From an uncultured bacterium (GTDB lineage: Bacteria; Acidobacteriota; Thermoanaerobaculia; Multivoradales; J023), in NCBI GenBank assembly GCA_937948815.1, contig CALFAM010000329.1, positions 33 to 64,032 of the forward strand: a DNA stretch of 64,000 nucleotides, written 5' to 3'. A program made the translations under genes and the position numbers. This document shows positions 9,875-44,440 of the stretch, piece after piece (within the stretch, counting starts at the first letter, position 1; the number at the start of each line of letters is the position of its first letter). The notes under the pieces were generated by a model. That model was not told the DNA's origin, ran no database searches, and saw only the letters and a list, made by a program, of their open reading frames with translations.

Positions 9875-10618
9875 ATGAACAATCGAATCAAAGACAAGGT
9901 CGTCGTCATTACTGGCGCGAGCAGTGGACTCGGCGAAGCAACTGCCCGCCATCTCGCATCGAAGGGCGCAGCCGTCGTTCTCGGCGCTCGCCGTCTCGCC
10001 AGACTCGAGGCGATCGTGGCCGATATCCGAGCGGCAGGTGGGAAGGCTGAGGCAGTCACCACAGATGTCACGCGTCGCAGTAGCGTGCAGGGGCTGGTCG
10101 ACAAGGCCGCTGCGACCTTTGGTCGGGTTGATGCGATCATCAACAATGCTGGGGTGATGTCGATCGCACCCATGAGCGAGCTCAACGTCGAAGAATGGGA
10201 CCGCATGATCGACGTCAATATCAAAGGAGTGCTCTACGGCGTTGCCGCCGCGCTTCCCATCTTCGAGAAGCAAGGATTTGGCCATTTCATCAATATTTCT
10301 TCCGTCGCTGGAATCAAGGTCTTCAGCCCGGGTGGAGCGGTCTACAGTGGCACCAAGTACGCCGTCCGCGCCATCAGTGACGGCCTACGCTTCGAGGTTG
10401 GTGGGTCGATTCGGACCACGACCATCGAACCCGGAGTCGTGGACACCGAGCTCAAGCACGGTACCTCACACGAGGAGAGCTCGAAGTTCGTCAACGAGTT
10501 CTATGAGATCGCGATTCCGGCTGATTCTGTGGCGCGCGCAATCGCCTACGCCGTCGAACAGCCCGACGACGTTGATGTCAACGAGATCGTTCTACGGCCC
10601 ACAGCGCAGGATTTCTGA
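9875..10618 (+). CDS. Short-chain dehydrogenase/reductase (SDR)
   Basis: AAGGAGAG before ATG 9875. Cofactor motif VVVITGASSGLGEA, NNAG, and catalytic YSGTKYAV. Confidence 0.9.
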   Translation: MNNRIKDKVVVITGASSGLGEATARHLASKGAAVVLGARRLARLEAIVADIRAAGGKAEAVTTDVTRRSSVQGLVDKAAATFGRVDAIINNAGVMSIAPMSELNVEEWDRMIDVNIKGVLYGVAAALPIFEKQGFGHFINISSVAGIKVFSPGGAVYSGTKYAVRAISDGLRFEVGGSIRTTTIEPGVVDTELKHGTSHEESSKFVNEFYEIAIPADSVARAIAYAVEQPDDVDVNEIVLRPTAQDF

Positions 10619-10821
10619 ATCACGTTCTGAGTCGGGTGCCGATGCCGATACTCGTAGAGCCAATCTGAACGGCTTCGCCACTGGCCCATTCCGTTGAGCG
10701 GCGCAGGCAGCCCGCGACCACTCGCCTCCGACTTCCGGCGAGCACGCGTGGAAGCGACGAGTTTCTCGAGCCAAGGGGCCATCATCGGAAGCTGATGTGG
10801 CCCGATCCCGGTCACGGTGTG

Positions 10822-10861
10822 AGAGTAAAACGGGGTCGACATCAAATCGATGTCGACCCCG
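10822..10861 (-). terminator. Rho-independent terminator: perfect 13-bp stem, 5-nt loop, U-tract on the minus strand
   Basis: CGGGGTCGACATC-aaatc-GATGTCGACCCCG at 10831-10861. On the minus strand it is followed by TTTTACTCTC. It lies 88 nt downstream of the stop at 10949. Confidence 0.7.
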
Positions 10862-10948
10862 TGGCCGATTGGGTCGCGAGCCGCTGCAGGCAGAGTCCGC
10901 GGCGCAGCAGAAAGCTGGTGACGCGGAAGGCCCGAGTACGCAAGAGCC

Positions 10949-29154: not shown

Positions 29155-30389
29155 CTGCCCTGACGCGGCGCGTCGCGTAGCGCCTTGGTCAGAGGCGCGG
29201 GAAAGCGCGGCATGACCCGCTCGTCGCCGAGTGCCCGTTCGAGGGCTTCGGCCGCCTCGCGAACAAATACTTCCGCTTCCGGGCAGGGTGCCAGGAGCCG
29301 CCAGGCGATACTGCCGTCGTGGCGCTGTGTCCAGCCTCCGATCACCCGCCCGTGCCACCAGACCGTCGGTCCGGCGTTGCCATTGCGATCGAAGAGCTGG
29401 CTCGTCCACGAGGGCTCGAGAAAGCGCTCTCGCTGTTTGTAGCCCATGATCGTCGGGTCCAAGCCGGGGAGCAGGGCCACCCCCGGAGGTGTCTCGGCCA
29501 TCGGGCTGCGGATGGTGTCGAGGTCCGCGTCGAGCACGAGCTGAGGCGAGGGCCAAGAGCCCACGTACACCTCGCGGACGGCGTGTCCGAGCTGCTCCAA
29601 CGCCTTGCGGACCATCCCTTTGGGCAGGCCGGTCCACCAGACGATGTCCTCGAAGCTGGCTGGGCCAAAGGCGGCCAGGTAGTGGTGGACCAGGTCCTGC
29701 CGTGCGACTTCCGGTGGCGATATGGGCGCCAGGTCCGGTAGCCAGCTCGTGACGGTGGCCCAGTTGTACTTGCCACTCCGCCAGCTACCCTGCTGGTGTG
29801 CGCGCACGGTCGCACCCTCGATTCCCAGCCCACCCATGAGATGGCCGCCGATCACCACGCGGGCCCCGTAGGGCTTGTCCGGCTTGTAGAGGAACGAAGC
29901 GCCGAGGGCGGGCACGGTGGACGCGAGCTCGGTGGCGGTGGCGGGGCCGTCGGTCAGCGCGGCGACGACGGCTTCGCGGGTCTGCTCGAGGACGCTCTCC
30001 GCATCCGGCTCGCGCGCCAGCCCTGCAGAGACCAGGAACCGCGCCTGGTCGATGCGCGCCTTGCGTGCGAGTCGCTCGCGGTAGATCGAGAGCACCGTCG
30101 GAATCGTCGCGGTGGGCAGGACATGCAGCGTACGTCGCATGCAGAGCCAGCGCACCAGGCTCCGATCCGTCTCGAGCGCGCAAGTCATCACCCGTGCGGT
30201 CTCGTCCAGGCTCGCGTGTCCGCATCGGATGTGTGCGGAGAGGTGGACGGTGGCCGGGTCGGTGGCATGGAGCGCGACCAATCGCGAGACCAATGCAACA
30301 GGATCGCTCGCGGCGGGGGTTGGCGGCAGGTGGTGCCGCTCGGCAATGCGGCGCAGCGTCTGCTCGGGGTCGAGGGCGGTGAGGCTCAC
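29151..30389 (-). CDS. Winged-helix DUF1006 / YcaQ-AlkZ family protein
   Basis: GTG 30389 forms a GTGA overlap with the kinase stop. Family blocks LVRWLCMRRTLHVLP and HYLAAFGPASFEDIVWWTGL. The stop overlaps the convergent gene stop (CTAG at 29151-29154). Confidence 0.75.
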   Translation of the reverse strand: MSLTALDPEQTLRRIAERHHLPPTPAASDPVALVSRLVALHATDPATVHLSAHIRCGHASLDETARVMTCALETDRSLVRWLCMRRTLHVLPTATIPTVLSIYRERLARKARIDQARFLVSAGLAREPDAESVLEQTREAVVAALTDGPATATELASTVPALGASFLYKPDKPYGARVVIGGHLMGGLGIEGATVRAHQQGSWRSGKYNWATVTSWLPDLAPISPPEVARQDLVHHYLAAFGPASFEDIVWWTGLPKGMVRKALEQLGHAVREVYVGSWPSPQLVLDADLDTIRSPMAETPPGVALLPGLDPTIMGYKQRERFLEPSWTSQLFDRNGNAGPTVWWHGRVIGGWTQRHDGSIAWRLLAPCPEAEVFVREAAEALERALGDERVMPRFPAPLTKALRDAPRQGS

Positions 30390-33376
30390 GGTCGAAGCTC
30401 GGCGATCTGCTGGTAGCGGTCGCGCTCCGCTGTGTCGTTCCAGGCCCGATAGACCTCGCTCATCCGCACGGCGGCCTCGCGCACCAGGCTGGCGCGCACG
30501 CGATCCCGCTCGGCGATCTGGTCGAAGCCGTCGGCGAGGCGTGCCTCCCACTGTCCACGCACACCCCGCTGGGCGCGAATCGCCGTTTGGATGTGGTCGG
30601 CACGGCGCACGTCCCAATGATCGGCCGGGAGGGACGCATGCAGCACCTCGAGCGCGGCGTCGATGGTCTCTGCGGCTTCGTCCAGGCGGTCGAGCGAGCG
30701 CAGGGTGTCGGCGTGCGCAGCGCGGGCGTTGGCCACATCCGGGTGCGTGGGGCCAAAGCTGTCTTGGTAGAGGGTCGCCGCCTCGGCGAGGAGCTTCGCT
30801 GCGAGCTCGCGTTCACCTTGCATGCGGTGCATGCGAGCCAGGCTCACCTTGCTCTCGGCAACCGCGGGGGCGGCACGACCGAGGGCTTCCGTTCGGTTGG
30901 CGAGGCTGCGCTCGAGGAGCGCGCGGGCCCCTTCCAGGTCGCCACGATCGAGCAGGATGGCGCCGCGGACCGACAGCACTGCGGTGATCCACACATGATC
31001 TTCGTCAACCCGTGTGCGTAGCACCGCGAGTGCCTCGTCCGAGGATGCCAAGGCGTCGTCCAGTCGACCTTGGAGGCGCAGCAGACGGGCCATGTTGTGG
31101 CGGGTCAGCCCGATGTTGGGGTGATTCTCCGGGACGCTCTCGACGAAGATCTCGAGCGCTTTGCGCATGCTGGCCTCCGCCTCGTCCAGCCGGCCCAGCA
31201 CCATGGCTAGCCGCCCGAGGTTGCCATAGATCATCGCCACGAAGGGATGACGCTCACCGTGGATCTTTCGAAAAACGCGCAGGGCTTCGCGATACGACGC
31301 CGCGGCGCCTTCGAAGTCGGCCTGGGCGCGCAGCACGGCTCCCAGGTTGTTGTAGGTAGCCCCGGTTTCGACCGTGTCGCCCAACCTCGGTACGAAGATG
31401 CTCAAGGCTTCGCGGAGTGCCTGCTCGGCATCGTCGTAGCTGTTCTTGTTGCGCAGAATCTCCCCGAGCGTGTTGAGGCTGCTGGCTACCTCCAGGCTCG
31501 AAGGGCTGTGCTGTCGAATCCGCGCCAGCGCTTGCCGGGTGAGCGCCTCGGCCTCGTCCATGTCGCCGCGCATGGAAACGATCGAAGCGAGGTCCGAGAA
31601 GGCGTTGGCCTGTTCGGCATGGTTGCTGGGCGGGTAGACGTCCAAGGCTCGCCGGAGAGACGACTCAGCGGCTTCCAGATCGCCGGTCTCGCGCAGAACC
31701 AGCGCCTGCTGATGCAAAGCTTTGGCGAGGGTGTCGGCGTGATTCTCCTCGTGTGGCGTCAGCAGCGCGATGGCGTCGCGCAGGTGAGCTGCTGCCTGCT
31801 CGGTATCACCGAGCAGGAGGTGGGCAATGCCGAGGTCGCCGAGGGTGGCGCCGACCTCCGGATGGTCGACGCCGAGCTCTTGGCGGCGCAAGGCGAGGGT
31901 GCGATCGAACAACGCCTTCGCCTCGGGATACGAGCCGAGATGTTTGTAGACCGTCGCCAGCGTGTCGTAGAGGCGGGCCTGGGTGTCAGGTTGATCGGCG
32001 AGATCGATTTCGATGCGTTCGCGTTGCGCATCGATCAGATCCTTGACGGGAATACGCTGATCCGGTTCGTTGCGCGGATCCTGGCTCTTGAAGATACCTT
32101 CGAGGAACGCGACCGCTTCTTCGGCGCGCTGCTGCTCCTGAAGGGCGAGGTTGCGCTCATTGCCGAGCCGATGTGCCTGCACGGAGGCGTTGAAGGCGAA
32201 CGCGGTCATCGAGGCCGCGAGCAAGCCGGCGAGGGCCACCGGCACACGGTTGCGGGCCGTGAACTTGCTCGCGCGATAGCCCCAGGTGTTGGGACGCGCC
32301 CGCACCGGCTGGCCCGAGAGATAGCGGCCGATGTCGTCCGACAGGGCTTCCACCGAGGGATAGCGCTGCTCGGGCTCGCTGACCAACGCCTCGAGGGTGA
32401 TCCGGTCGAGATCGCCGATCAGCAGCCGGCGCCGAATGGGGAACGCGGTCTCGGGAAGCGGCGTCTCGCTCGGCAGCCGCGGCGGTCGCGTATCGAGCAG
32501 CCGTTCGATCTCGGCCGGGCTCTTGCCCGTCAGGTCGAAGGGCTTGCTGCCGGTCAGCAGCTCGTAGAGCAAGACACCCAGCGAGTAGATGTCGCTGGCG
32601 ATGGTAATGGTGCGCCCTGCGATTTGCTCCGGGCTGGCGTAGCCCGGCGTCAGCGCGCGGTACAGCGTCTGGGTCGGTGTACCTTCGGCGCCTTCCTGGA
32701 GCAGCTTGGCGAGCCCGAAGTCGAGCAGCTTGGGCTCGCCTTCCTCGTTGACCAGGATGTTCGCCGGCTTGAGGTCACGGTGGACGACCAGGTGGCGATG
32801 GGCGTAGTGTACGCCCGCGCAGACCTTGCGGTAGAGCTTTAGGGTAGCCCGGAGGCCGAGCTGCTGCTGCTGGCAGTGTGCGGTGATCGGCATGCCGCGG
32901 ACCAGCTCCATGACCACGTAGGGCACGCCTTCGTCGCTGGTGCCGCCATCGTAGAGGCGAGCGATGTTGGGGTGGTCGAGCTGCGCGAGGATCTGCCGCT
33001 CGCTGAGCAGCCGACGCTCGAGATTGGGATGCGACAGGCCCTGGAGAAGCTTGACGGCGACCTCGCGCTCGAATTCGTCGTCCGCGCGCTCGGCACGGTA
33101 GACGAAGCTCATTCCACCGATCCCGATGCGTTCGCGCAAACGGTAGGGCCCGAGGTGCTTGCCTTGCCACGGATCGTCTTCGGCGGCCTGGGCCTCGAAG
33201 ATGGGACGGTCGAGGAACGAGTCGTCTCTCGCGCTCGTCAGCAGGCGCTCGAGCTGACTGCGCAGTTTCGGGTCCTCGCGCTCGATTTCGGCCAGAAAGC
33301 CGGGTAGCTCGTCCGCCGACTGTTGAGACGCACGATCCCAGAGGCTTGCCAGGCGCTGCCAGTCTTGAGGTTGCAC
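30386..33376 (-). CDS. Ser/Thr protein kinase with TM segment and a long TPR repeat domain
   Basis: Hanks kinase motifs GIGGMSFVY, VAVKLL, HRDLKPANIL, DFGLAK, YASPE. A TM follows at about aa 385, then many TPR-like repeats. Confidence 0.9.
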   Translation of the reverse strand: MQPQDWQRLASLWDRASQQSADELPGFLAEIEREDPKLRSQLERLLTSARDDSFLDRPIFEAQAAEDDPWQGKHLGPYRLRERIGIGGMSFVYRAERADDEFEREVAVKLLQGLSHPNLERRLLSERQILAQLDHPNIARLYDGGTSDEGVPYVVMELVRGMPITAHCQQQQLGLRATLKLYRKVCAGVHYAHRHLVVHRDLKPANILVNEEGEPKLLDFGLAKLLQEGAEGTPTQTLYRALTPGYASPEQIAGRTITIASDIYSLGVLLYELLTGSKPFDLTGKSPAEIERLLDTRPPRLPSETPLPETAFPIRRRLLIGDLDRITLEALVSEPEQRYPSVEALSDDIGRYLSGQPVRARPNTWGYRASKFTARNRVPVALAGLLAASMTAFAFNASVQAHRLGNERNLALQEQQRAEEAVAFLEGIFKSQDPRNEPDQRIPVKDLIDAQRERIEIDLADQPDTQARLYDTLATVYKHLGSYPEAKALFDRTLALRRQELGVDHPEVGATLGDLGIAHLLLGDTEQAAAHLRDAIALLTPHEENHADTLAKALHQQALVLRETGDLEAAESSLRRALDVYPPSNHAEQANAFSDLASIVSMRGDMDEAEALTRQALARIRQHSPSSLEVASSLNTLGEILRNKNSYDDAEQALREALSIFVPRLGDTVETGATYNNLGAVLRAQADFEGAAASYREALRVFRKIHGERHPFVAMIYGNLGRLAMVLGRLDEAEASMRKALEIFVESVPENHPNIGLTRHNMARLLRLQGRLDDALASSDEALAVLRTRVDEDHVWITAVLSVRGAILLDRGDLEGARALLERSLANRTEALGRAAPAVAESKVSLARMHRMQGERELAAKLLAEAATLYQDSFGPTHPDVANARAAHADTLRSLDRLDEAAETIDAALEVLHASLPADHWDVRRADHIQTAIRAQRGVRGQWEARLADGFDQIAERDRVRASLVREAAVRMSEVYRAWNDTAERDRYQQIAELRP

Positions 33377-33430
33377 GGCTCCTCCTGCTCTCTTGGTGCC
33401 CGTTCGCCCGTCCGCGTGCTCCCGCGTTCG

Positions 33431-34003
33431 CTAGCGAAGCTCGTCGCGTAGCCAGGCGCGTGCCATCTGCCATCGGCGCGACACCGTTGCCTCGCCGACA
33501 CCGACCACACGTGCGATCTCTGGGATGGTCAGTCCGCCGAAGAAGCGAAGCTCGACCGCGCGCGCGGCGACCGCGTCGACCTTGGCCAGCCGCTTCAGTG
33601 CCTCATCGAGCGCCAGCAGGTCGATGCCGCCGCCAGCCGCGCTCAGCTTCTCGGGATCAGCGGTCAAGCGGAAGAAGGCGCCACCCCGTTTCAGCGAGCT
33701 CTTCTGACGGTAGCGGTCGACCAACACCTGGCGTGCGATGCGCGCAGCGAGGGCGTAGAACTGCAAGCGACTCGACCATCGAAGGTGTCGATTGGCGGCA
33801 AACCGGAGGTAGGTCTCGTGAACCAGCTCGGTCGGCTGAATCGTGTCTTGGTGCGAGGCGAATAGCTGGCGCGCTGCGATCTTACGCAACTCGGGATAGA
33901 CCAAGTCGAACAAGCTATCTCCCGCATCCCGATCGCCCTGCTCCCAGCTTTGCAGCAGGCGCGTGACATCGGCCCCGGGAACGGACTCCCCAGTCTCGCG
34001 CAT
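33431..34003 (-). CDS. ECF sigma factor of the kinase-associated type (DVTRLL..W..GD N-terminus)
   Basis: DVTRLLQSWEQGDRDAGDSLFDLVYPELRKIAARQL, a region 2 helix, and the region 4 HTH EIARVVGVGEATVSRRWQMARAWL. Confidence 0.9.
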   Translation of the reverse strand: MRETGESVPGADVTRLLQSWEQGDRDAGDSLFDLVYPELRKIAARQLFASHQDTIQPTELVHETYLRFAANRHLRWSSRLQFYALAARIARQVLVDRYRQKSSLKRGGAFFRLTADPEKLSAAGGGIDLLALDEALKRLAKVDAVAARAVELRFFGGLTIPEIARVVGVGEATVSRRWQMARAWLRDELR

Positions 34004-34137
34004 CGTGTCCCTAGCGTACCGCAGTCCCCCTGCGGGCTCGGAGCAGCACGGGCGACAATGCGCTGTGTGCGGTTGCCAGCCGAGCCACTCGCGGTGTCAG
34101 CCGGCAGCCCGACGGTGCGGCAGGCGGCTGTGGGTCG

Positions 34138-36810
34138 TCAGCCGTGGCGGGCCCGAAGCAGGGCGATGACCTGGCGAATCGACAGCGGCGCCAAGCCCTT
34201 CTTTCGATTTTGATCGCCGATGGCAAATGCTAGACGCCACTGCGCGAAGAGGATCTTGTAGGCGGCGAAGAGGCTGTTGTCGGGATCGTAGATGTTGGTG
34301 GCTTCGGAGGAAACACCATTGAGCTCGAGCACGCTGAGGTTACGCCCGGCGTGGAAGTCTTCCAGGCTCGGTGCGCGGAGGTCGAAGCGGCCGAAGTAGA
34401 AGCCGTCGAGGCTCTGGCTGATGCGCTCGACCTCGGCCTCGAGCGCCGCGGTACGGTGGGCCTCGCCATCCAGGAAGACGGCGCCGAGGCGATGGGTCCC
34501 GATCTCGACCAGGCGCACGATTTCGCCAGCCGCGGGCACTTCGTCGATCCGAGCAGCGAGGCCGGCGAGGTAGGTCGATGCCATGGCCACTGCGCGCGGG
34601 TCGGCCAGAATCAGGCGCTCGATCGTCGACCGGCCGTCGCCGACCACCTCGGGGAGCTGTTTGTCGGTGATGGCGAAGATCCGCCCCTTCTCTTCCTCGG
34701 GCAGCCGGACGTAGAAGACACCCAACTCGGGGCCTTCGACATAGGCCTGCACGATCGCCGCGCCACGCGTCTGGCGGCAGAAGGATTCGATGTCCTCGTG
34801 CGTGCATGCCTTCACCACGCCCGTGCCGCGCTCGCCGACATTGGGTTTCAGGATGATCGGGAAACGGAGGTCGTGCTCGCGCATGAAGGCGTCGACCATG
34901 TCGATCCGGGCGCCGACTGTCGCATCCGCGGGTAGCACCCGAAAGGGCGGCACCCACTGCTTGCCGAGATGGCCGAGGATCGTCGACTTCGACTCGCCCA
35001 CCAGGCCACCACCGGCAGGCAGACCTGGATTGGCGAGGGTGAAGAGGGTTGCGCTCCGGTAGCGCAGGGCGAGCCACGCGATGTAGGCAACCACCGGCGG
35101 ATAGAGACGCCAAATGGGCCAGAACTCCCAGTGGATTTGACGTCGCCACCAGCCGAGGAGCTGGCGTCGACCGCCATAGGTGAGCAGGCGCTGGCCAACA
35201 CCGATGACCAGCCAGATGGTCACCAGGATGCCGACGAATCCGAGCACGGCGTACTGCTCGAATCGCTCGAAGAACGCCAAGAACTGGTCACCCAGCCGCC
35301 GTGAGATCTCGACCACCAGAGGGGTCCAGATGGCGACTGGCAAAAGTAGCCAGAGCGCGTAGACCCGCACGGGCATCCGCACCAGGCCGGCCGACACGTA
35401 GGTGGGAAGCCGGAGACCGGGAATGAACCGGCTGGCGAAGATCACCGCCGGACCCCGCTTGGCGAACCAGCGCTGGCTGCGTGCCAGTGCAGCCGCGCTC
35501 ACCAGGTACTTGAGCGGAGCCCGACTGAGGCTCTTGTGACCGAGTCGGCCGGCTCCATAGAGCAGCATGTCGCCGATGAAGATGCCGCTGGCGCAAGCCA
35601 TGGCCGCGGGTACGAAGCCGATGTTGCCGCGGGCGACGAGAAGGCCGGCAGTGATGCAGGTCAAATCCTCACTGGCCATGGTGGCGAGGGCGAGAAGTAC
35701 GAGGATGACCAGGAGCGTGACGCCTTGGGCGCGAAAGGACGCGAGCACTCGAGGCGCCGCGGCAAGAGCTTGCCGCTCCGGTGTGCTTGCGGCGCGGGCG
35801 ATCGCGGTGCCGGAGACGACCCGTGACACGAACGCCTCGATCGGCGCGGCGAGGGCCTGCGGCTGGCGAAAGACCATGAAATGGTTGGCATCGAAGGTGA
35901 TCAGCTCGCTCTGCGGCACCAGGCGATGGCTCTCTTGCGCCGCCGCGAAGGGCACCAGCATGTCGTGCTCACCATGGACGATCAGGGTCGGCTGGGCCAG
36001 CCGTTCGAGGATCGGTGTCAGCGGACGCTGGTCGGTATCGTAGAAGTTGCGGGCGTAGGGGATATCGAGGGGGAACCCATCGAGCTTGCCGAAGTGTGGG
36101 AGGGCCTGATGGAGCACCGTGATGCCAGCGAGCTGGATACCGTGCAGCGCGTGATTGACGTGGTAGTTGCCCAGCAACTCCAGCTCCTGGACGCCGATCG
36201 AAGAAAGCAGCACCAGCGAGCGAACGCGCTCGGGAAGGCGGTCTGCGAGGTGCAAGGCGACACCGCCTCCCATGCTGAAGCCAACCACGTGTACCGCGTC
36301 GATTCCGAGCAGGTCGAGGAGGGCTGTGGCGTAGGCGGCGTGGGCCTCGATCGAGTAGCTGGCGACCCGACGCGTCGATCCACCGAACCCGGGAAGATCC
36401 GGGGCGATGACGTCGTAGCGCTCCGCGAGCCGTGCACCGAGGGCCTGGAAGTCGTCGGCCGATCCTGGGCTGCCGTGAAGCAGCAGGATGGTCGGCCGAG
36501 GGGTCTCAGCCTGCCAGGCACGGTAGGCCATTCGGGTGGTCCCGCGCGTGCCCGCGGTCGGTGCGACGTCCTCGGAGCCTGTGCCGGTGAGCGAAGCGGG
36601 CAAATCGAGGAAGGCACGGTCAGCCGGCAGCGCCTCGGGTGCCCGCAAACGCACGAAGTGCGAGCTGGCCAGTGCGATGCCGTAGAGCGCGAGGGCGACC
36701 CATAGCCAGCGCTTCCGTTTTGGAGATGGCGAGTGGTCAGGAGCGCGGGTCTCGGGAGCTTGCGAGGCGGTGCGCTTCGCTTCCAGGTCGGGATTCAGAT
36801 CAGCTCGCAC
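34138..36810 (-). CDS. Tri-domain fusion: TM-anchored alpha/beta-hydrolase + DedA/VTT membrane domain + C-terminal ATP-grasp ligase
   Basis: Uninterrupted 890-aa ORF. KRKR-TM anchor. Hydrolase motifs LLLHGSPGS, GFSMGG, HGEHD, ANHF. Multi-TM DedA-like region (GDMLLYGAGRLG, FASRFIPGLRLPTYVSAG). ATP-grasp-like C-terminus (ILKPNVGERGTGV, VQAYVEG, VVGDGRSTIERLI, VLELNGVSSEATNIYD). Confidence 0.85.
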   Translation of the reverse strand: MRADLNPDLEAKRTASQAPETRAPDHSPSPKRKRWLWVALALYGIALASSHFVRLRAPEALPADRAFLDLPASLTGTGSEDVAPTAGTRGTTRMAYRAWQAETPRPTILLLHGSPGSADDFQALGARLAERYDVIAPDLPGFGGSTRRVASYSIEAHAAYATALLDLLGIDAVHVVGFSMGGGVALHLADRLPERVRSLVLLSSIGVQELELLGNYHVNHALHGIQLAGITVLHQALPHFGKLDGFPLDIPYARNFYDTDQRPLTPILERLAQPTLIVHGEHDMLVPFAAAQESHRLVPQSELITFDANHFMVFRQPQALAAPIEAFVSRVVSGTAIARAASTPERQALAAAPRVLASFRAQGVTLLVILVLLALATMASEDLTCITAGLLVARGNIGFVPAAMACASGIFIGDMLLYGAGRLGHKSLSRAPLKYLVSAAALARSQRWFAKRGPAVIFASRFIPGLRLPTYVSAGLVRMPVRVYALWLLLPVAIWTPLVVEISRRLGDQFLAFFERFEQYAVLGFVGILVTIWLVIGVGQRLLTYGGRRQLLGWWRRQIHWEFWPIWRLYPPVVAYIAWLALRYRSATLFTLANPGLPAGGGLVGESKSTILGHLGKQWVPPFRVLPADATVGARIDMVDAFMREHDLRFPIILKPNVGERGTGVVKACTHEDIESFCRQTRGAAIVQAYVEGPELGVFYVRLPEEEKGRIFAITDKQLPEVVGDGRSTIERLILADPRAVAMASTYLAGLAARIDEVPAAGEIVRLVEIGTHRLGAVFLDGEAHRTAALEAEVERISQSLDGFYFGRFDLRAPSLEDFHAGRNLSVLELNGVSSEATNIYDPDNSLFAAYKILFAQWRLAFAIGDQNRKKGLAPLSIRQVIALLRARHG

Positions 36811-37417
36811 ATACGGTCTCGTTCAGCTCGGCGGTCTCGGCCATCTCGGCGTCGCGCTCCGCCTGGGCGCGGTGCGCGGAGGTCGACGGCGCAACGCCGA
36901 AGCCCGCGGGCGGCTCGACACCCCGGTAGCGCATCAGCAGTCCGATCAGCGCATAGTGGTGGACCGTGTGGCTGAGCAAGACCTGTAGCTCGCGCCCGAT
37001 CGACGAAGCAGCCCAACCGTCCGTCGGTGACGCCCAGACCACACCTTCTGCGTGCACGGTCACGGCATTCCCGGCGTCCGCAATATCGATCCGGCCGAGT
37101 TGCTCGATGACTTCGAGCAGCGCGGCTTCGGCAGCCTCACGATCGGTCTCGAGGCGCGGGTCTCGGTCGCGCGCGTCGTAGTCGATCCGCCCTTCGCCGA
37201 GGCCGCGAAGGAAGTTGCGGAAGAAGTCGATCGTGTGGCGCAAGTGGGCGCCAATGCTTCCGATTCCGGTCGAAACCTGGGCGGTGTAGGCGTCGTCGTC
37301 GAGGGCGCGCACCAGGTCGAGGCCCTGATCGAGCACGGCAATGGTGTGAGCGGTGATGGTCAAACCGAAAATCTCCTGGCGATCGGCGCCCTGCGAACGC
37401 GCTTGACGACGCGTCAT
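36800..37417 (-). CDS. DinB-family (four-helix-bundle metalloprotein) protein
   Basis: ATG 37417 forms an ATGA overlap with the GNAT stop. His-triad context IGAHLRHTIDF ... LSHTVHHYALI. The 3' end overlaps the next start by 11 nt. Confidence 0.7.
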   Translation of the reverse strand: MTRRQARSQGADRQEIFGLTITAHTIAVLDQGLDLVRALDDDAYTAQVSTGIGSIGAHLRHTIDFFRNFLRGLGEGRIDYDARDRDPRLETDREAAEAALLEVIEQLGRIDIADAGNAVTVHAEGVVWASPTDGWAASSIGRELQVLLSHTVHHYALIGLLMRYRGVEPPAGFGVAPSTSAHRAQAERDAEMAETAELNETVCAS

Positions 37418-38238
37418 CCAAAAAAGATTCGCACCTGCCGTTCGCTCAAGATGGCGACATCGAGCAGGGCCAAAAAGTCGATGGTCTTGAATCCGCGGTC
37501 GATAGCGGGCCCGCTGCACACGGTCGCGCCATGCCGTAGATACGTTCGAAACAACCTGGGGATTTGGATTTCCTCCAGGGGCACCGGAGCGTCGCTCGCC
37601 GGGCAAGCATAGCCTGGCATCGGGGCCAGACGGATCTCAGGATGGAGGTGGTCGTGGGCTGCGAGCCACTGCATGGTGCCCCAGCCCTCATGGGGGTTCT
37701 GGCTGGTCAGTGAACAGCAGCCAAAGAGAAAACGCAGGCGGTTGGCGGCCACGTAGTGTGCCAGGCCCTTCCAGAGAAGGAACAGAACGATGGTGTTCCG
37801 GTGACCGTTGGCAATGCAGGCGCGTCCGAGCTCGACCGCTTGCTCGGTGACGGACTGTGGCATGTCGGCGAAGTCGAAGACGGTCGCGGAATAGAGCCCT
37901 TCCCGCTCACTGGCGCGGGCCGCGGGTTGCAGTCGGTAGGTCCCGACCACCTCACCTGTCGAGCGATCTTCCACCATCAGGTGGTGGCATGCACTGTCGA
38001 AGCGGTCGTGGTCGCGTCCGGTTTCGAACGATGTTGCGAGCCCTTCGCCGAGCTCCAGGTTGAAGACCTCGAAGCGTAGGCGCAACACGGCGTCGACATC
38101 TTCCGAGCTGTGCGCGAAGCGGGCGACATAGCGGCCCTTCTCGATGACCGCGTCTGGGAGCTCAGCGGCCGAGAGCTCGCATTCTCCTGGGGCTTGGGGA
38201 TCGAGGCCTTCTGGGCTGAGATCGATGCCTGGCTTCAT
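37414..38238 (-). CDS. GNAT N-acyltransferase of the OlsB / N-acyl amino acid synthase type (Acetyltransf_5-like)
   Basis: ARFAHSSEDVDAVLRLRFEVFNLELGEG....GRDHDRFDSACHHLMVEDRSTGEVVGTYRLQ matches the family signature (E..A.RLRY.VF..E.G......D.D.FD..C.HL.V.......VVGTYRL). Confidence 0.8.
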   Translation of the reverse strand: MKPGIDLSPEGLDPQAPGECELSAAELPDAVIEKGRYVARFAHSSEDVDAVLRLRFEVFNLELGEGLATSFETGRDHDRFDSACHHLMVEDRSTGEVVGTYRLQPAARASEREGLYSATVFDFADMPQSVTEQAVELGRACIANGHRNTIVLFLLWKGLAHYVAANRLRFLFGCCSLTSQNPHEGWGTMQWLAAHDHLHPEIRLAPMPGYACPASDAPVPLEEIQIPRLFRTYLRHGATVCSGPAIDRGFKTIDFLALLDVAILSERQVRIFFG

Positions 38239-38310
38239 TGCATAGCCTCTTGGGCGAGGTCGGCCTGGGCGGATCCGTGCGCGCTCAGCGAGGTCGAACG
38301 TGAGGCGTCA

Positions 38311-38343
38311 ACACGTGGCGCGAACACGTGACGCGAACACGGG
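38311..38343. repeat. 13-bp direct repeats with CACGTG cores: ACACGTGGCGCGA / ACACGTGACGCGA / ACACGGG
   Basis: Read directly, 73-105 nt upstream of the GNAT start. On the minus strand the repeats abut a TTGACG hexamer (38311-38306). Confidence 0.8.
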
Positions 38344-38385
38344 GGGCAAGGCAGCACCGAAGCGAGTGCCGCCCTGGACTCGTCC

Positions 38386-39150
38386 TCAGAGCCGCTCGAT
38401 GGCGCTCGGATCGGCACGCAGGATCCACTGATCGCCGACCTGGACGACTTCGCCGGTGATCGCCACGGTCTCTGCGACCCATCCGAGCACCTCCTGGTTG
38501 ATCGTGCTCCCGTCTGCTCCCACCAGCAGAAGGTACGTGCCCACGCCATCCTGGTTTCGCTGTACGAAGAGCGGAGGAATGCCGCCGCGGATACACAGCG
38601 AAGCGCAGGCGCGATGAGGTTTCGTCGACCCGGGCTTCATGACGCCGAGGTAGCACTTGCTGTCGACGATCTCGCCACGCAGCGTCATCGTACCGTGAGC
38701 AACCTCGTCTGGGCCACGCTGCACGGCGCCCGCGACTGCCTCGACACTGCCGTCGACGACCTCCAGCATGGTCTGGTCATCTCGGTAGATCAGGGTGCCT
38801 TCCAGTTGGACACGCTGTCCCACGACGTCCGCGACCATCGGACCTGCACCGAATTTGCCCGCGGCGACCAGGTAATAGCGTGAGGAGCCACCGCCGGGCC
38901 GGTCGACCAGCAGCAGTGGGTGCGGGTCGACGACCACCGTACCTGCGAAGGTGCGGACGTTGCCGAATTCGAAGAAGGCGACGTCGAACGTGTGTTGGGC
39001 GGCAGCGAGCACGACCGCCAGAAGCGGTGCCAGCACGAGCAAGCCGATGACACCCTTGCGGACGTGGGTCGCGATCGGCCGCGGCGCGGTCGGTAGGTAG
39101 CCGATGTAGAAGGGGTCCTGAGACGCGTTGGTTGGAATCTGCTCAGCCAT
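38386..39150 (-). CDS. Membrane-anchored hypothetical protein with a C-X14-C-X3-C motif
   Basis: ATG 39150 overlaps the upstream stop by 8 nt (ATGGCTGA). TM GVIGLLVLAPLLAVVLAAA. The extracytoplasmic part contains KCYLGVMKPGSTKPHRACASLCIRGG. Confidence 0.65.
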   Translation of the reverse strand: MAEQIPTNASQDPFYIGYLPTAPRPIATHVRKGVIGLLVLAPLLAVVLAAAQHTFDVAFFEFGNVRTFAGTVVVDPHPLLLVDRPGGGSSRYYLVAAGKFGAGPMVADVVGQRVQLEGTLIYRDDQTMLEVVDGSVEAVAGAVQRGPDEVAHGTMTLRGEIVDSKCYLGVMKPGSTKPHRACASLCIRGGIPPLFVQRNQDGVGTYLLLVGADGSTINQEVLGWVAETVAITGEVVQVGDQWILRADPSAIERL

Positions 39151-40210
39151 GACGGCCTCCCGCGCTTTCCGTGCCGTGAATCGGCGCCGGCTGGACGGCG
39201 GTCCCCGGCGGGTTCGGGCGTGGATCAATGAAGACACGTCCGTTTGCGACCCGCACGTTGAAGGTGGCTACCTTCTCCGTGAAGGGTGCTGGTGCCCTGC
39301 CATTCGCCGGCTCGTACTGGAAGCCGTGCCAGGGACAGACCACACACCCGTCGACGATCTTGCCCTCGCCCAGCGGGCCGTTCTGGTGCTTGCACACACT
39401 GGAGAGCGCAGAGATCTTGCCGTCATACTGGTAGACCGCGACCCGCTCGTCTGCCACGGACACCAGCTTGGCGCGCTTCTCGGGAATCTCGGATACGGCG
39501 CAGACCTCGAGAAAGCCGTCCGTGCTCCGTGGCCCGCGGAGGGGCTGATCTCCCGCTCGCTCCCGCCAGCCGGTCACCAGGTGGAGCGCCAGCAGCCAGA
39601 CCATGCCAGCACCCAGCAAGGCGACCAGCACGGGATGGGTCTCGACCTGCAAGACCCCGAGCGCCACGTGCATCACGATCGCCGCGTAGGCGACGTAGAC
39701 CATCATGTGCAGAGATTTCCACACCGGTGGGCTGAGGTTGGCCAGCCAGAAGTCGTGGCTGGTCGCCGCCATCAGGAAGAGGATGGCCAGGGCGAGCAAG
39801 CCGAGAGGCTGAAAGGGAAACTGGGCGAGGCTGTCGTACCGGCTGTTGCCGAGAAGTACGTTGACCAGCGGATTGAGCGAGCCGAGAACATGAAACTGCA
39901 CCGTGGCGAAGCCGCCGTGGGCCAGCGCCAGTACGAACATGGCGATGCCGAGGTGCCGCCGGTTGTACAGCAGAGGCAAGAAGCGGCGGTCCAGTCGGCA
40001 CAAAGGGCCGATTGACAGGATGATGTGGAGCAGGAGAAGCGCCCCCGTGCCGAAGGCTCGGATCAGCGCACTCTCGACGGTGATCTCTGGCTGAAGCGCC
40101 ATGCTTCCGGCTACGAAGGCAGCGATGTAGAGAACGATGCCCCCGACCAGCGTCAGGTCGTAGACTTTTTTCTGGCGATTCCAGCCGACGGCCTGGTACG
40201 ACTCGCTCAT
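39143..40210 (-). CDS. Ferric-reductase-type (MsrQ/YedZ-like) six-TM domain fused to a C-terminal Rieske [2Fe-2S] domain
   Basis: Six hydrophobic spans with conserved His (LLLHIILSIGP, RRHLGIAMFVLALAHG, AAIVMHVALG). Rieske motif CKH-X16-CPWH. Confidence 0.85.
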   Translation of the reverse strand: MSESYQAVGWNRQKKVYDLTLVGGIVLYIAAFVAGSMALQPEITVESALIRAFGTGALLLLHIILSIGPLCRLDRRFLPLLYNRRHLGIAMFVLALAHGGFATVQFHVLGSLNPLVNVLLGNSRYDSLAQFPFQPLGLLALAILFLMAATSHDFWLANLSPPVWKSLHMMVYVAYAAIVMHVALGVLQVETHPVLVALLGAGMVWLLALHLVTGWRERAGDQPLRGPRSTDGFLEVCAVSEIPEKRAKLVSVADERVAVYQYDGKISALSSVCKHQNGPLGEGKIVDGCVVCPWHGFQYEPANGRAPAPFTEKVATFNVRVANGRVFIDPRPNPPGTAVQPAPIHGTESAGGRHG

Positions 40211-40731
40211 GACGGGTTCTCCCCGGGCGCGCCGTCCTCGTTGGCGGGCGGTTCGACCGACGAACCCGCAGGGATCGTCAATGCGCCCTGATCGAGGACT
40301 TCCTGGTGCCCCAGGCTGTAGAGGATGATGCGGCCATTGGTGGCCTCGGAAGGGAGAGGGTAAGCAGTGTTGCGCAGCGGACCGAGCAGCCTGGCGCCGG
40401 ATGGCAGGCCGTCCGCCGCCGCCGCATCCGCGGAAGGCGTGCCTGACAGCCAGTAGATCAGTGTGTCGGGCGTGCGAACCGCGGCGCTCGGGGTCACGGC
40501 GAGCAGCCGGCCGCCGTTCGACGTGTCGAAGACGCGGACGGAGGCGTCGACGGTCGAAAAGAGGTCCGGGCGTTCGACCAGCAGCTGGCCGAGGCTCTCG
40601 GACTCCACTGCCTCAGAGGCGCGACTCGAGTCGCCGGGGCGCGCGCCGATGGCCAGCGCGACGGCCACGGGCAGCAGCACGGCCAACATGACGAACATGT
40701 GGAAATGGCGGCGTCGAAGCGGCGCGATCAT
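40207..40731 (-). CDS. Membrane-anchored hypothetical protein
   Basis: ATGA overlaps at both ends (40728-40731 and 40207-40210). One N-terminal TM (FVMLAVLLPVAVALAIG). Confidence 0.6.
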   Translation of the reverse strand: MIAPLRRRHFHMFVMLAVLLPVAVALAIGARPGDSSRASEAVESESLGQLLVERPDLFSTVDASVRVFDTSNGGRLLAVTPSAAVRTPDTLIYWLSGTPSADAAAADGLPSGARLLGPLRNTAYPLPSEATNGRIILYSLGHQEVLDQGALTIPAGSSVEPPANEDGAPGENPS

Positions 40732-40973
40732 GCGTTGTCTCCGGGAGAGGGTGTCGCGCGCAGCCACCGCACGAGCAAGAACGGCCACAAGGCAGCCGCG
40801 CCCGGCACGATCAGAATGCGAAATCCCCACGTCGCCTCGGCAGCGGACGGATCGATCGCGCGCGCGCCGCGCCATGCGAATGCGAGCGCGAACAGCAGGC
40901 CGATCGCCAGGTAGATGGTGGTGAAGCTCACCAGCCCGGTTGCCAGGCTGGTCGCGAGCGAGGAATCTGTCAT
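40728..40973 (-). CDS. Small two-TM membrane protein (81 aa)
   Basis: GGAGA 6 nt before ATG 40973. Two hydrophobic spans. First gene of the coupled operon. Confidence 0.5.
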   Translation of the reverse strand: MTDSSLATSLATGLVSFTTIYLAIGLLFALAFAWRGARAIDPSAAEATWGFRILIVPGAAALWPFLLVRWLRATPSPGDNA

Positions 40974-41030
40974 CCGCGTCTCCGTCGGGTCATTGGGCGT
41001 GGCTTCGTGCTGCGCCGTTGCATTTTCACT

Positions 41031-41040
41031 ATTGCGCAAT
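41031..41040. promoter_or_regulatory. Perfect 10-bp palindrome ATTGCGCAAT
   Basis: Read directly, 58 nt upstream of the start at 40973, in the 450-bp divergent intergenic region. Confidence 0.25.
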
Positions 41041-41425
41041 CGCCGTCCGAGGTTACAGGAGGGTATTCGGCTCCGCTGGCGAGACGGATCGAATCTGCAA
41101 GAATCGGGCGTGCCGGACCGCCCTTCCGGCACCCTCTGCGAGTCACGGGACGAGTCCCCGTCGATTGGGCGCTCGGTGGAGCACGGCTGGCGTCTGAGTC
41201 TCCTGCTTCGTCCAGCTCTGCGATCGACTCATACACTCCTCGCCACGCCACAGCCCGAATCACCAAGAGGCTTGCGAAGGACCGTGGTAGCTTTTGGACT
41301 CATATGTGCAGACTTTAAGAGGCTCCACCGAGCAGTGCGCCCATTCAACATCCAGGATCGTTGGTCAGAGTTGAGTAAGCTCCGGTGCGACCCGACACAC
41401 ACCCTTCGGTGCAAGGAGGATTGCA

Positions 41426-42022: not shown

Positions 42023-44440
42023 GTGTTGAATGCTCATGAGCTTTCGCAGCCGAAGGGCGCTCGTGCCTCGGTCTGCACGATTCTCTCCATTGCGGCACTG
42101 GCGCTCCTCACCAGCCCAGTCGTCGCGCAGGTGACGTGGGAAGACGTCAATCCCGACTTCACCGATACCCACGGTATCGACCCGGATCGCGCCAGTGGTG
42201 GTCGCGTCAATCGCCTGGCCATCGAAGCCGGCAACAACTCGGTCATGTACGCCGCGAGTGAATGGGGCGGCATGTACAAAAGCACGGACGCTGGTCTGAC
42301 CTGGGGACGCCTCGACGGCCATCTGCCAGTCGCGGCCTGGGACGTCGAGATCGATCCGGGCAATCCTTCGAAGGTCTACGCCACGTCCTTCTTCGATGGC
42401 AAGGCGGCCTCGGTCTCGGGTATCAACGTCAGCTCCGATGGCGGTGCCACCTGGACCCACCCGGCCTCGGCCAATCCGCCCGCCGGCTTCTGTCAGAACC
42501 TGCGCGACGAGACCGAGCTGACTGCCTTCGGCATCTCGGTGCACCCAACGAACAACGCGATCGTCTACATCGGTACGAGCTGCGGTCTCGCCAAGAGCAC
42601 GGACGCGGGCGCGACGTGGGAGTACATCGATCCCTCGCTGACGCCGGGTACCGCGACGCGGGTGTGGGATGTCATCGCCCGACCGGGCGGCGTGGTCCAC
42701 GTTTGCGGCAATGATGGCTACCTGCGTTCGGACAACGGCGGAACCTCGTGGGTCCAGGGCACCGGCCTGCCAGGCGGGCGTTGCAACCTCGCGATGTCGC
42801 CGGACGAGGACTACGTCCTCCTCGCGGCGGTCGGTACCTCGATCTACGAGACCACCAACGCCAACTCCGCGACACCCATGTGGACCCAGACGCGCCAGAA
42901 CCTCTCGCCCCAGGGCCGCGTGCCCTTCGTGGAGACCAACCAGCGATCTGACAATGGCGCTGACAACGTCTTCGATCTCTGGTTCGGCGATGTGTCACTC
43001 TGGCGTGTGGGCTGCACCACGCCGACTCCGCCGGCGCCGGGCGGCGCTCCGCGCTGCGGTACTGCCAATGTGCCGGCATGGGCGGGGCCCTTCACCCGCA
43101 CGGTCGGCGGTCATGACGACATGGGCGACGTCATCTTCGACTCCGAGGCTGCCAACGATGCCTGCCCGGTCTTGATGTCGTCCGACGGTGGCGTCTACTT
43201 CAACGCCGACTCCACGGCGGATTGCCACAACCCGAACTGGGATGAGCCGAATGTCACGCCGCATGGTCTCTGGCCGTTCTCGATGTCGGGCAACGACCGC
43301 CCGGGCGCGGCTGAGGATCTCTACTTCGGCAACCAGGACAACGGCCTGTTCGGAACGATCGACATCTCCGATCCCTCGCCAACCTGGCACAACGAGCTAT
43401 GCTGCGACGGTTTCGATACCGCGGGTGACGATGATGGTGCGATCTTCTCGATCTGCTGCTTCGGCGGCGGCGGGCGCTCGACCCAGCTCGTGCGCACGCA
43501 GCCCGGTTTCGTGAATGGTGCGACCGTTACCGCCGGCAACTACCCGCCCGGCGGCTTGCTGCCGACCTTCAACATTCCGGACTCGATCGTCCGCTACAAC
43601 GATTCGAGCTATGTGTTGATCACCCGTGATTGCACGGTGGGTGCTGGTGGCTGTCTGGGTGCCGATGGCGGGGTCTTCATCACCGACGACATCGATGCCG
43701 GATCGGTCACCTGGACCGAGCTCGGCAATGCCACCGAGCCGCCGACCAACCAGGTCTGCGGCGTCCAGGTTGGCGTCAATGGCGGCGGTACCCCGACCTT
43801 CTACGTACAGACCGGCGACTGCGACCAGCAGGGTGCCGCGGACCGTATGTTCCGCTACACGGGCACGGCGCCGGGCAATGCCTGGACGGAGATCACCTTG
43901 CCCGCGGGTGGCTTCGGCTTCCTGGCGGCCAACCCGTCGAATCCGAATCGTTTGATCGCTTCGGGCCAGACCGGCACCGACGCGGCGATGTTCTCGTCGA
44001 CCGATGGCGGCACCACCTGGACCGCCATGCCCGCGCTCGATGCCCTGATGAACGGTGGCGGCGACTTCCCGATGCGGAACTTCCGTGGACCGTCGCGTTT
44101 CACCGGCTTCAATGGCTACTGGCAGCCGAGTTTCGCGGCGTTCGATCCGGACACCCCCACCATCTTGGCCGGCGGCCAGGACTCGGGTGTGTTCATGAGC
44201 ACGGATGACGGCGCGAATTGGACCTTGGTCTCGGATCCGCGCACGTCGGATACCTCTGGTACACCGCACATTCCGCGCCCGCGCTACGGCTACTTCGACA
44301 CCGAGGGCGGCGTCACGACGTTCTACATCGGCAGCCAGGGCCGCGGCATCTGGCGCGGTACGGTCGGCGTGGTGGTGGACATCTTCGCGGACAACTTCGA
44401 GTCTGGCGATACCTCGGCCTGGTCGGCCACCATTCCGTAA
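42023..44440 (+). CDS. Secreted BNR/Asp-box repeat beta-propeller protein (sialidase / GH74 / Sortilin-Vps10-like fold)
   Basis: Six SxDxGxTW Asp-boxes (STDAGLTW, SSDGGATW, STDAGATW, SDNGGTSW, STDGGTTW, STDDGANW). Signal-like N-terminus. GTG start. Confidence 0.8.
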   Translation: MLNAHELSQPKGARASVCTILSIAALALLTSPVVAQVTWEDVNPDFTDTHGIDPDRASGGRVNRLAIEAGNNSVMYAASEWGGMYKSTDAGLTWGRLDGHLPVAAWDVEIDPGNPSKVYATSFFDGKAASVSGINVSSDGGATWTHPASANPPAGFCQNLRDETELTAFGISVHPTNNAIVYIGTSCGLAKSTDAGATWEYIDPSLTPGTATRVWDVIARPGGVVHVCGNDGYLRSDNGGTSWVQGTGLPGGRCNLAMSPDEDYVLLAAVGTSIYETTNANSATPMWTQTRQNLSPQGRVPFVETNQRSDNGADNVFDLWFGDVSLWRVGCTTPTPPAPGGAPRCGTANVPAWAGPFTRTVGGHDDMGDVIFDSEAANDACPVLMSSDGGVYFNADSTADCHNPNWDEPNVTPHGLWPFSMSGNDRPGAAEDLYFGNQDNGLFGTIDISDPSPTWHNELCCDGFDTAGDDDGAIFSICCFGGGGRSTQLVRTQPGFVNGATVTAGNYPPGGLLPTFNIPDSIVRYNDSSYVLITRDCTVGAGGCLGADGGVFITDDIDAGSVTWTELGNATEPPTNQVCGVQVGVNGGGTPTFYVQTGDCDQQGAADRMFRYTGTAPGNAWTEITLPAGGFGFLAANPSNPNRLIASGQTGTDAAMFSSTDGGTTWTAMPALDALMNGGGDFPMRNFRGPSRFTGFNGYWQPSFAAFDPDTPTILAGGQDSGVFMSTDDGANWTLVSDPRTSDTSGTPHIPRPRYGYFDTEGGVTTFYIGSQGRGIWRGTVGVVVDIFADNFESGDTSAWSATIP

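Follow-up and report, generated by a model that had tools for sequence, protein, structure and literature searches.

Which task is carried out by a protein that joins, in a single chain, an alpha/beta-hydrolase, a DedA-type lipid transporter and an ATP-grasp ligase, and that is encoded directly behind an OlsB-like N-acyltransferase (GNAT) and a DinB-fold protein? The question is raised by three minus-strand genes of contig CALFAM010000329.1 from an uncultured bacterium of the Acidobacteriota, analysed here as a stretch of 64,000 nucleotides (the window, 64 kb). Our preferred reading, which we regard as about evenly poised between right and wrong, is that the three genes represent a reduced form of an accessory module that is widespread and serves OlsB/OlsA-type aminolipid synthesis. 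Aminolipids are major phosphorus-free membrane lipids. Reviews of the field name no transporter for them, and the enzyme behind the ATP-dependent taurine transfer to their head group is unassigned there (PMC11631085, PMC12971839).

A conserved triple fusion in a compact operon

The initial annotation described three minus-strand genes with two overlaps, and the list of open reading frames (ORFs) and a direct reading of the junctions agree with it (coordinates in Table 1). The GNAT stop codon and the DinB initiation codon overlap as ATGA at 37414-37417 (junction sequence TTT GGA TGA). The fusion starts with a GTG at 36810 and shares 11 nucleotides (nt) with the DinB gene, whose TGA stop codon lies at 36802-36800. 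The third gene is indeed a single uninterrupted ORF of 890 amino acids (aa). A scan of positions 33300-41300 gave no promoter-like site and no more terminator-like sites than expected, while Rfam and tRNA scans of the window yielded no matches.

The triple fusion is a real, conserved and unnamed protein family. Among the best 120 matches in each of two database searches, essentially all homologues are ~770-950 aa long and cover 86-100% of the query; their identity to the window protein is 48-58%, apart from two closer relatives. Homologues of such similar length and high coverage exclude that the fusion is an artefact of assembly, a possibility that the initial annotation had raised against itself. 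Within these same sets of matches, named homologues carry only the labels "alpha/beta fold hydrolase" or "carboxylesterase/DedA", and none is from a cultured organism. A look-up of the window's fusion protein by exact sequence retrieved no entry; its relatives point to an Acidobacteriota-like source. When one genome per GTDB species was scanned, at least 570 stretches of the family were confirmed, which correspond to several hundred genes because two search patterns may match the same gene. According to the record titles the carriers, mostly uncultured bacteria, belong to at least seven phyla: Acidobacteriota, Gemmatimonadota, Verrucomicrobiota, Bacteroidota (Rhodothermales, Cytophagia), Planctomycetota, KSB1 and Desulfobacterota.

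The full-length AlphaFold2 (AF2) model of the fusion has a mean predicted local distance difference test score (pLDDT) of 90.5 and a predicted template modelling score (pTM) of 0.73. Its first 25 residues are not conserved and are modelled with pLDDT below 50. All modules proposed from the sequence were recovered by Pfam/NCBIfam matches, by profile search of the PDB and by fold comparison. Conservation of fusion residues is given below for an alignment of 118 homologues.

Gene neighbourhood in relatives

Eighty related loci were searched with the window proteins and with profiles of two extra genes found in relatives; the counts that follow cover the 58 loci with at least 3.5 kb of sequence upstream of the fusion. 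In 45 of them the OlsB-like GNAT gene precedes the fusion and in 41 DinB is near it, both in several phyla, so that the co-occurrence across phyla suspected from the single locus is real. The gene order GNAT, DinB, fusion is conserved far beyond chance. Two genes missing from the window recur in this setting. A PlsC/OlsA-family acyltransferase with an intact HX4D motif directly follows the GNAT gene (34/58), and a TANGO2-like cysteine N-terminal nucleophile (Ntn) hydrolase is found at 29 loci; the most frequent order is GNAT-PlsC-DinB-TANGO2-fusion, which L019 and L057 show in full. A Rieske/ferric-reductase protein accompanied by an orphan protein, P283, occurs at 23 loci.

The partners also stay together where the fusion is taken apart. 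A version that lacks the hydrolase is arranged GNAT-PlsC-DinB-[DedA-ATP-grasp], and the order DinB-TANGO2-DedA-ATP-grasp, with DedA as a gene of its own, exists as well. Gammaproteobacterial contigs feature DinB-ATP-grasp-GNAT-PlsC and DinB-TANGO2-ATP-grasp-GNAT-PlsC. The latter, unfused arrangement is found in the cultured bacterium Arenicella xantha (locus L095; GCA_003315245.1, QNRT01000002.1, about 945.7-950.0 kb), with the GNAT-PlsC pair corresponding to OlsB-OlsA and the ATP-grasp protein named "carboxylate--amine ligase" by NCBI. A Phycisphaeraceae locus (L089) has the order Rieske-P283-DinB-TANGO2-ATP-grasp. That independent fusion, fission and reordering keep the same partners speaks for the aminolipid reading. 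The absence of OlsA/PlsC had initially been held against an ornithine-lipid-type pathway, an argument contradicted by the PlsC genes of the relatives and by the GNAT-PlsC pairs of the split versions. The window is therefore to be seen as a reduced derivative of an OlsB-OlsA-containing cluster.

One split locus (L093) has in addition, at its positions 9973-10875, a gene of the Asp/Arg beta-hydroxylase family (PF05118, the OlsC family), ~1.2 kb downstream of DinB-TANGO2-ATP-grasp-GNAT-PlsC. Its presence fits an ornithine-lipid-type product there.

GNAT, DinB and their recurrent partners

The GNAT matches PF13444 with 99.5 bits (cut-off 22.4). Its best NCBIfam matches are the OlsB equivalogs, with 141 and 127 bits for cut-offs of 350 and 320, and the alignment of its residues 35-272 to model positions 6-253 of 256 spans the full length of OlsB. 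DinB is matched by PF12867 (39.2 bits, cut-off 24.8) and, also above cut-off, by PF05163 (37.9 bits). In 49 DinB homologues the His triad H61, H150 and H154 is invariant, as are R60, Y80, R83, R85, R142 and H153. DinB is also the most persistent neighbour of the ATP-grasp gene in the split versions. It looks like an obligate partner of the ligase, with a putative metal site rich in arginine. Sequence searches of the PDB with DinB or the GNAT gave no matches.

The partners that are absent from the window look functional in relatives, judging like DinB by their conserved residues. PlsC keeps the HX4D and EGT motifs. In the TANGO2-like homologues (PF05742), Cys2 and the N-R-D-E motif are at least 90% conserved, and C2, R19, D20 and E21 are invariant. 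Human TANGO2 was proposed to be a Cys-Ntn hydrolase that uses fatty-acid amides as substrate (PMC13044924). Judged by the operon context, N-acyl amino-acid lipids are candidate substrates of TANGO2.

The ATP-grasp domain

The carboxyl-terminal domain was initially called ATP-grasp-like, an assignment expected to be verifiable with profile models. The Pfam RimK match of the single sequence reaches only 18.1 bits and stays below the cut-off of 21, whereas profile search of the PDB and Foldseek establish the identity of the domain. A profile built from the domain and its stand-alone homologues finds the cyanophycin synthetase CphA2 (7ta5, E 5e-9) as well as CphA1, GshAB and Ddl. The AF2 model of the domain (pLDDT 91) superimposes on the CphA1 G domain (7wae) with a Foldseek E-value of 1.9e-10 and probability 1.00. 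K655, E829 and N831 are invariant, and the E-x-N motif aligns with that of CphA2. The domain belongs to the amide-forming branch of ATP-grasp enzymes (CphA G domain, RimK, GshB, Ddl). The CphA G domain, GshAB and Ddl activate a carboxylate through an acyl-phosphate and form amide bonds.

The family of this domain comprises 2,761 representative clusters. By length and position of the match three forms can be told apart: the triple fusion (~850-900 aa), DedA plus ATP-grasp (~520-600 aa) and the stand-alone protein (~350-390 aa). A hydrophobic helix precedes the domain, comes after a loop of net charge +5.3 and is retained in most stand-alone homologues. W561, W564 and Y570 in it do not vary, and conservation of E562 reaches at least 90%. 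Most positions of this helix and of an NP...GG..GESK segment are invariant.

DedA domain and membrane topology

The middle of the fusion matches PF09335 over residues 386-500 (53.7 bits, cut-off 33.9). The nearest NCBIfam model is UptA (NF052604), with 68.8 bits, below the cut-off of 250. Invariant D382, R461 and R467 align with D51, R130 and R136 of Escherichia coli YqjA. DedA proteins are lipid flippases or scramblases, and those that flip undecaprenyl phosphate (UndP) bring it back from the outer leaflet to the cytoplasmic side (PMC10127716).

The topology was derived from charges counted over the whole family and from homology to YqjA. The loops 421-466 and 541-562 have net charges of +6.9 and +5.3 and are assigned to the cytoplasm, while the neutral loop 504-521 is assigned to the periplasm. 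The amino-terminal tail (median 8 aa) carries +1.9 and the residues after the anchor helix +0.3, which is the pattern of a signal-anchor and predicts an amino terminus inside the cell. Both flanks of the hydrolase have +0.3 and give no signal for either side. In the cysteine accessibility map of E. coli YqjA (bioRxiv 10.1101/2021.10.18.464800), A20, S52, V59 and V180 are periplasmic, and V99, L117 and G217 cytoplasmic. Charges and accessibility map together give a predicted layout in which the anchor's amino terminus is inside, the hydrolase is in the periplasm and the DedA core is followed by an ATP-grasp domain on the cytoplasmic side. The cytoplasmic side of the ATP-grasp domain, anticipated by the initial annotation, is a firm prediction because the domain follows loops strongly rich in Lys and Arg. 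The hydrolase, likewise thought to be exported, is most likely so, though with less assurance, and a periplasmic site agrees with its top structural match.

The alpha/beta-hydrolase domain

The hydrolase matches PF00561 over residues 106-325 (124.1 bits, cut-off 25.8). The motifs GFSMGG, HGEHD and ANHF noticed in the sequence are genuine: S179, D283 and H310, one in each motif, are invariant, as is G113, while H112 is at least 90% conserved. The domain has the Ser-Asp-His triad, the GxSxG elbow and the HG oxyanion element of its superfamily. Its top Foldseek match is PlaF (6i8w), with 331 aligned columns over about the full 310-residue chain; many soluble esterases have nearly the same score. 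Another alpha/beta-hydrolase, OlsI (Sinac_1601), serves as an aminolipid O-acyltransferase that O-acylates lyso-ornithine lipid (PMC12493201).

A scar of the TANGO2 gene in the window

No match to PlsC or TANGO2 profiles that represents a gene was found anywhere in the 64-kb window. A TANGO2 profile match does appear there, and was rejected because it covers only an upstream alternate frame of the DinB 3' end. The junction of DinB and fusion was compared at the nucleotide level with the DinB/TANGO2 junctions of three relatives (L004, L022 and L019). Relatives have ATGTGCAC(G/A)GTGAGCTGG at this place, where the TANGO2 start M-C-T-V-S-W overlaps the DinB stop codon. In the window ATGTGC is followed directly by GAGCTG, a relic of the ancestral TANGO2 start ATGTGCACGGTGAGCTGG (M-C-T-V-S-W). 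Set against the TANGO2 start of the relatives, this sequence indicates that TANGO2 was deleted in the lineage of the window. The 11-nt overlap of DinB and fusion is, by this comparison, a deletion scar, and it was within this relic that the fusion acquired its GTG start.

The closest relatives (L001-L007, L016, L022) likewise have no PlsC gene in the DNA examined. They keep the genes for P222, the Rieske protein and P283 directly upstream of the GNAT gene, as the window does at 38386-40875.

Proposed function and alternative explanations

In the scheme that we infer for the substrate, the direction of transport and the reaction of each domain, the OlsB-like GNAT would N-acylate an amino acid with a (3-hydroxy)acyl-ACP as donor, and in most relatives the PlsC/OlsA-like enzyme would then attach a second acyl chain. 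The 890-aa protein would act on the resulting lipid from both sides of the inner membrane. Its ATP-grasp domain, held at the cytoplasmic membrane surface by the hydrophobic helix, would activate a carboxylate as acyl-phosphate and ligate an amine to it. The most plausible target is the alpha-carboxylate that the head group of the lipid leaves free; amino acids, taurine or ammonia are candidate amines. DinB might act as the metal-dependent partner of the ligase. The DedA domain would carry the lipid across the membrane, where the anchored, PlaF-like and probably periplasmic hydrolase might deacylate or transacylate it.

Several observations weigh against this reading. The window has neither PlsC nor TANGO2, and may yield another product than the complete cluster does, for example a mono-acyl lipid. 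The 58 loci are not phylogenetically independent and many come from Acidobacteriota; a few stand-alone ATP-grasp homologues have no lipid genes as neighbours, and the Phycisphaeraceae locus has DinB-TANGO2-ATP-grasp with no GNAT nearby. The GNAT scores well under the OlsB equivalog cut-offs (141 versus 350 bits), so that its amino acid need not be ornithine. The DedA module retains both arginines typical of UndP flippers and has UptA as its nearest curated model. Finally, the first hairpin of canonical DedA proteins has a loop that is missing from this family, and AF2 shows residues 363-393 as an unbroken helix; should this helix cross the membrane, the hydrolase would lie in the cytoplasm.

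Three other explanations retain an aminolipid product or substrate, and we hold each of them to be improbable, to a similar extent. The ATP-grasp domain might amidate the head group, with TANGO2 as a glutaminase-type ammonia donor, to give a carboxamide and a more cationic lipid. MurT/GatD on lipid II and the subunits of carbamoyl-phosphate synthetase work in this manner, and the Ntn Cys enzymes include class II glutamine amidotransferases. The position of TANGO2 directly upstream of the ATP-grasp or fusion gene (29/58 loci and L089, L093, L094 and L095) and its conserved Cys2 and N-R-D-E residues are in line with such a role. However, the human protein was proposed to hydrolyse fatty-acid amides, not glutamine (PMC13044924), and many loci, the window among them, lack TANGO2 and would have to use free ammonia or a different amine. 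The way in which the modules are ordered across the membrane is equally compatible with traffic in reverse, a salvage or repair route reminiscent of LplT-Aas. Here aminolipids or phospholipids would be cut by the hydrolase at the outer leaflet, and DedA would return the lyso-product or N-acyl amino acid to the inner side, to be re-ligated by ATP-grasp at the expense of ATP. PlaF is a phospholipase A that degrades membrane lipids, and UndP-flipping DedA proteins work from the outer leaflet towards the cytoplasm (PMC10127716), but the cluster is tightly coupled to biosynthetic OlsB/OlsA and not to degradative genes, and versions without the hydrolase retain the same partners. The hydrolase could instead be the missing O-acyltransferase of operons without PlsC, like OlsI of planctomycetes (PMC12493201), possibly by transacylation from phospholipids. 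This would suit the window and its closest relatives L001-L007, L016 and L022, which lack PlsC in the DNA examined; yet PlsC and the fused hydrolase are found together at most loci, there is no acyl-ACP at the predicted periplasmic site, and PlsC could be encoded elsewhere in these genomes.

Two further proposals depart more from the scheme and appear more doubtful still. DedA might flip UndP or another phospholipid while the enzymes act on an envelope polymer, so that the adjacency of OlsB/OlsA would reflect a shared envelope regulon. That UptA is the best curated DedA match and that both phosphate-binding arginines are conserved accords with this proposal, for which we see very little likelihood: the score of 68.8 is far under the UptA cut-off of 250, the ATP-grasp gene is linked to GNAT-PlsC even where DedA is absent, and the linkage outlasts fusion, fission and reordering in different phyla. 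It is just as hard to believe that DinB, TANGO2 and ATP-grasp make a soluble precursor, an unusual amino acid or dipeptide subsequently N-acylated by the OlsB-like enzyme. ATP-grasp L-amino-acid ligases exist (3vot is among the weak profile matches) and DinB-TANGO2-ATP-grasp is found without a GNAT in L089, but the ligase has a conserved membrane helix, kept by most stand-alone forms as well, is fused or adjacent to a lipid transporter and lacks the usual large amino-terminal substrate domain.

For the ligation step of the scheme there is a precedent: ATP-dependent transfer of taurine to the ornithine carboxyl of ornithine lipid is known from cerilipin, its enzyme being unassigned in PMC12971839. 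The scheme of an accessory aminolipid module can also be extended. We put forward, as a speculation that we think more probably wrong than right, that the ATP-grasp protein of this family is the first member to be identified of a long-sought class of ligases, which use ATP to build on the head-group carboxylate of ornithine-type lipids (cerilipin, dipeptide lipids), that the fused form combines in one polypeptide ligation of an aminolipid in the cytoplasm, its flipping by DedA and the remodelling of its acyl chains in the periplasm, and that bacterial TANGO2 acts on the same N-acyl-amino-acid lipids.

Other genes around the operon

Upstream of the GNAT gene the window codes for three proteins that recur with the system (Table 1). 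P283 adjoins the GNAT gene in 23/58 loci and also lies beside DinB-TANGO2-ATP-grasp in the Phycisphaeraceae locus; profile search included, it has no relative in Pfam or the PDB. The Rieske/ferric-reductase gene is likewise syntenic in 23/58 loci and in L089. P222 is present in 15/58 loci, each time with the Rieske module. A possible role of the three proteins is to provide electrons for the DinB-type metal enzyme or for a partner in the periplasm.

Just downstream of the fusion, on the same strand (30386-34003), are genes for a sigma factor of the extracytoplasmic function (ECF) type (PF07638) and for a Ser/Thr kinase of 996 aa that has long arrays of tetratricopeptide repeats. Such pairs occur in only about five related loci, several kb from the fusion and in either orientation. 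Being rare, distant and variable in orientation, the pair is not counted as a member of the system; these are probably unrelated, paralogue-rich regulators. A few kb away, an 805-aa ORF (42023-44440, plus strand) has repeated Sx(D/N)xGxTW-like motifs resembling sialidase/BNR-type repeats.

Table 1. Features of the locus. Positions are those of the window unless a related locus is named; domain limits in aa refer to the fusion protein.
Feature	Position	Strand	Remarks
OlsB-like N-acyltransferase (GNAT, Acetyltransf_5)	37414..38238	-	274 aa
DinB-fold putative metalloenzyme	36800..37417	-	205 aa counted from ATG at 37417
Hydrolase + DedA + ATP-grasp fusion	34138..36810	-	890 aa, single ORF without interruption
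Amino-terminal tail, KRKR and membrane anchor helix (aa 30-56), aa 1-56	36643..36810	-	
Alpha/beta-hydrolase domain, lipase or acyltransferase type, aa 66-335	35806..36615	-	PF00561
DedA/VTT lipid-transporter domain, aa 360-545	35176..35733	-	PF09335
Hydrophobic helix tethering ATP-grasp, aa 561-585	35056..35130	-	conserved WEFWP...Y.P
ATP-grasp carboxylate-amine ligase domain, predicted cytoplasmic, aa 586-890	34138..35055	-	
Scar of TANGO2-like gene deletion, 12 nt	36801..36812	-	ATGTGC + GAGCTG, fusion GTG start inside
Orphan membrane-anchored protein P283	38386..39150	-	invariant GEIVDSKC..G.MKPG..K.HRACA..C motif
Ferric-reductase-type (MsrQ-like) membrane domain + Rieske [2Fe-2S] fusion	39143..40210	-	PF01794, PF00355
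P222, single-pass membrane protein, one hydrophobic segment	40207..40875	-	start codon uncertain
TANGO2/NRDE homologues in relatives	L019 9273-10010; L057 9150-9890; also L093, L094, L095		invariant Cys2

Significance and comparison with known systems

The finding is a strong, testable lead and not an explained system. What the analysis shows is how the genes are built, which domains they encode, that the catalytic residues are intact, that linkage to OlsB, OlsA, DinB and TANGO2 is conserved and that the ATP-grasp domain is placed in the cytoplasm; the chemistry is proposed. The cluster supplies candidate genes for aminolipid metabolism, namely a membrane-tethered ATP-grasp ligase, a DedA protein, a DinB metalloenzyme and an Ntn hydrolase, and has a cultured host in Arenicella xantha. 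DedA proteins would gain a new class of substrate if our reading is correct. The family is abundant in soil and sediment Acidobacteriota, Gemmatimonadota, Verrucomicrobiota and Bacteroidota, and an uncharacterised class of lipids may therefore be widespread in the environment. Through its linkage to TANGO2 the cluster gives bacterial access to a protein of human disease, the substrate of which is debated (PMC13044924, PMC11867700); under the speculative extension of the scheme given above, the co-inherited bacterial protein would point to the native substrate class of human TANGO2.

The initial annotation did not recognise the architecture as a characterised system. No description of it was found in the searchable literature, and recent aminolipid reviews do not mention it. 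The system falls outside MprF, cyanophycin synthetase and UptA, whose defining features it lacks. With the cyanophycin synthetase G domain, RimK, GshAB and Ddl, its best profile and structural matches, the ATP-grasp domain has the fold and the ATP/Mg2+ residues in common. It differs from the best structural matches by an identity of only 17-20%, by its fusion to DedA and by the replacement of the amino-terminal substrate domain of known ligases with the membrane helix and the NP...GG..GESK segment. Only a G-like domain is present from cyanophycin synthetase; M and N domains are absent and Pfam gave no Mur-ligase match. The DedA domain belongs with COG0586 (YqjA/YghB/UptA) by its PF09335 score above cut-off and the equivalents of D51, R130 and R136. 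In contrast to that family it has no equivalent of E39, its first hairpin is without a loop and its score is far under the UptA cut-off. Fusions of COG0586 proteins to PAP2 and rhodanese are on record (PMC10127716), unlike the one to a hydrolase and ATP-grasp found here. PlaF (PA2949), the membrane-anchored phospholipase A1 of Pseudomonas aeruginosa, likewise consists of a single amino-terminal membrane helix followed by an alpha/beta-hydrolase, but it is 24% identical to the hydrolase domain and stands alone, without fusion partners.

The design was initially likened to an MprF built from unrelated parts, which is a fair analogy. In MprF, too, one polypeptide joins a cytoplasmic head-group enzyme to a lipid translocator, and periplasmic alpha/beta-hydrolases such as AcvB act as exported enzymes on the product. 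MprF uses aminoacyl-tRNA where ATP is used here, its transporter is not of the DedA type, and its substrate is phosphatidylglycerol as opposed to a likely aminolipid; neither LPG_synthase nor MprF flippase domains gave a Pfam match at E <= 0.01. The OlsB/OlsA pathway, with its head-group modifications by OlsC/D/E/G and the cerilipin branch, is matched by a full-length OlsB-like GNAT, to which relatives add an OlsA-like PlsC. Since the taurine-transfer enzyme of cerilipin is unassigned, no homology of it to the ATP-grasp domain can be claimed. The window has no OlsA, and the DinB, TANGO2, ATP-grasp, DedA and hydrolase partners are outside any described Ols system. We class the system as aminolipid biosynthesis equipped with novel accessory enzymes and a transporter of its own, and it shares its first two steps with the Ols pathway and its design logic with MprF.

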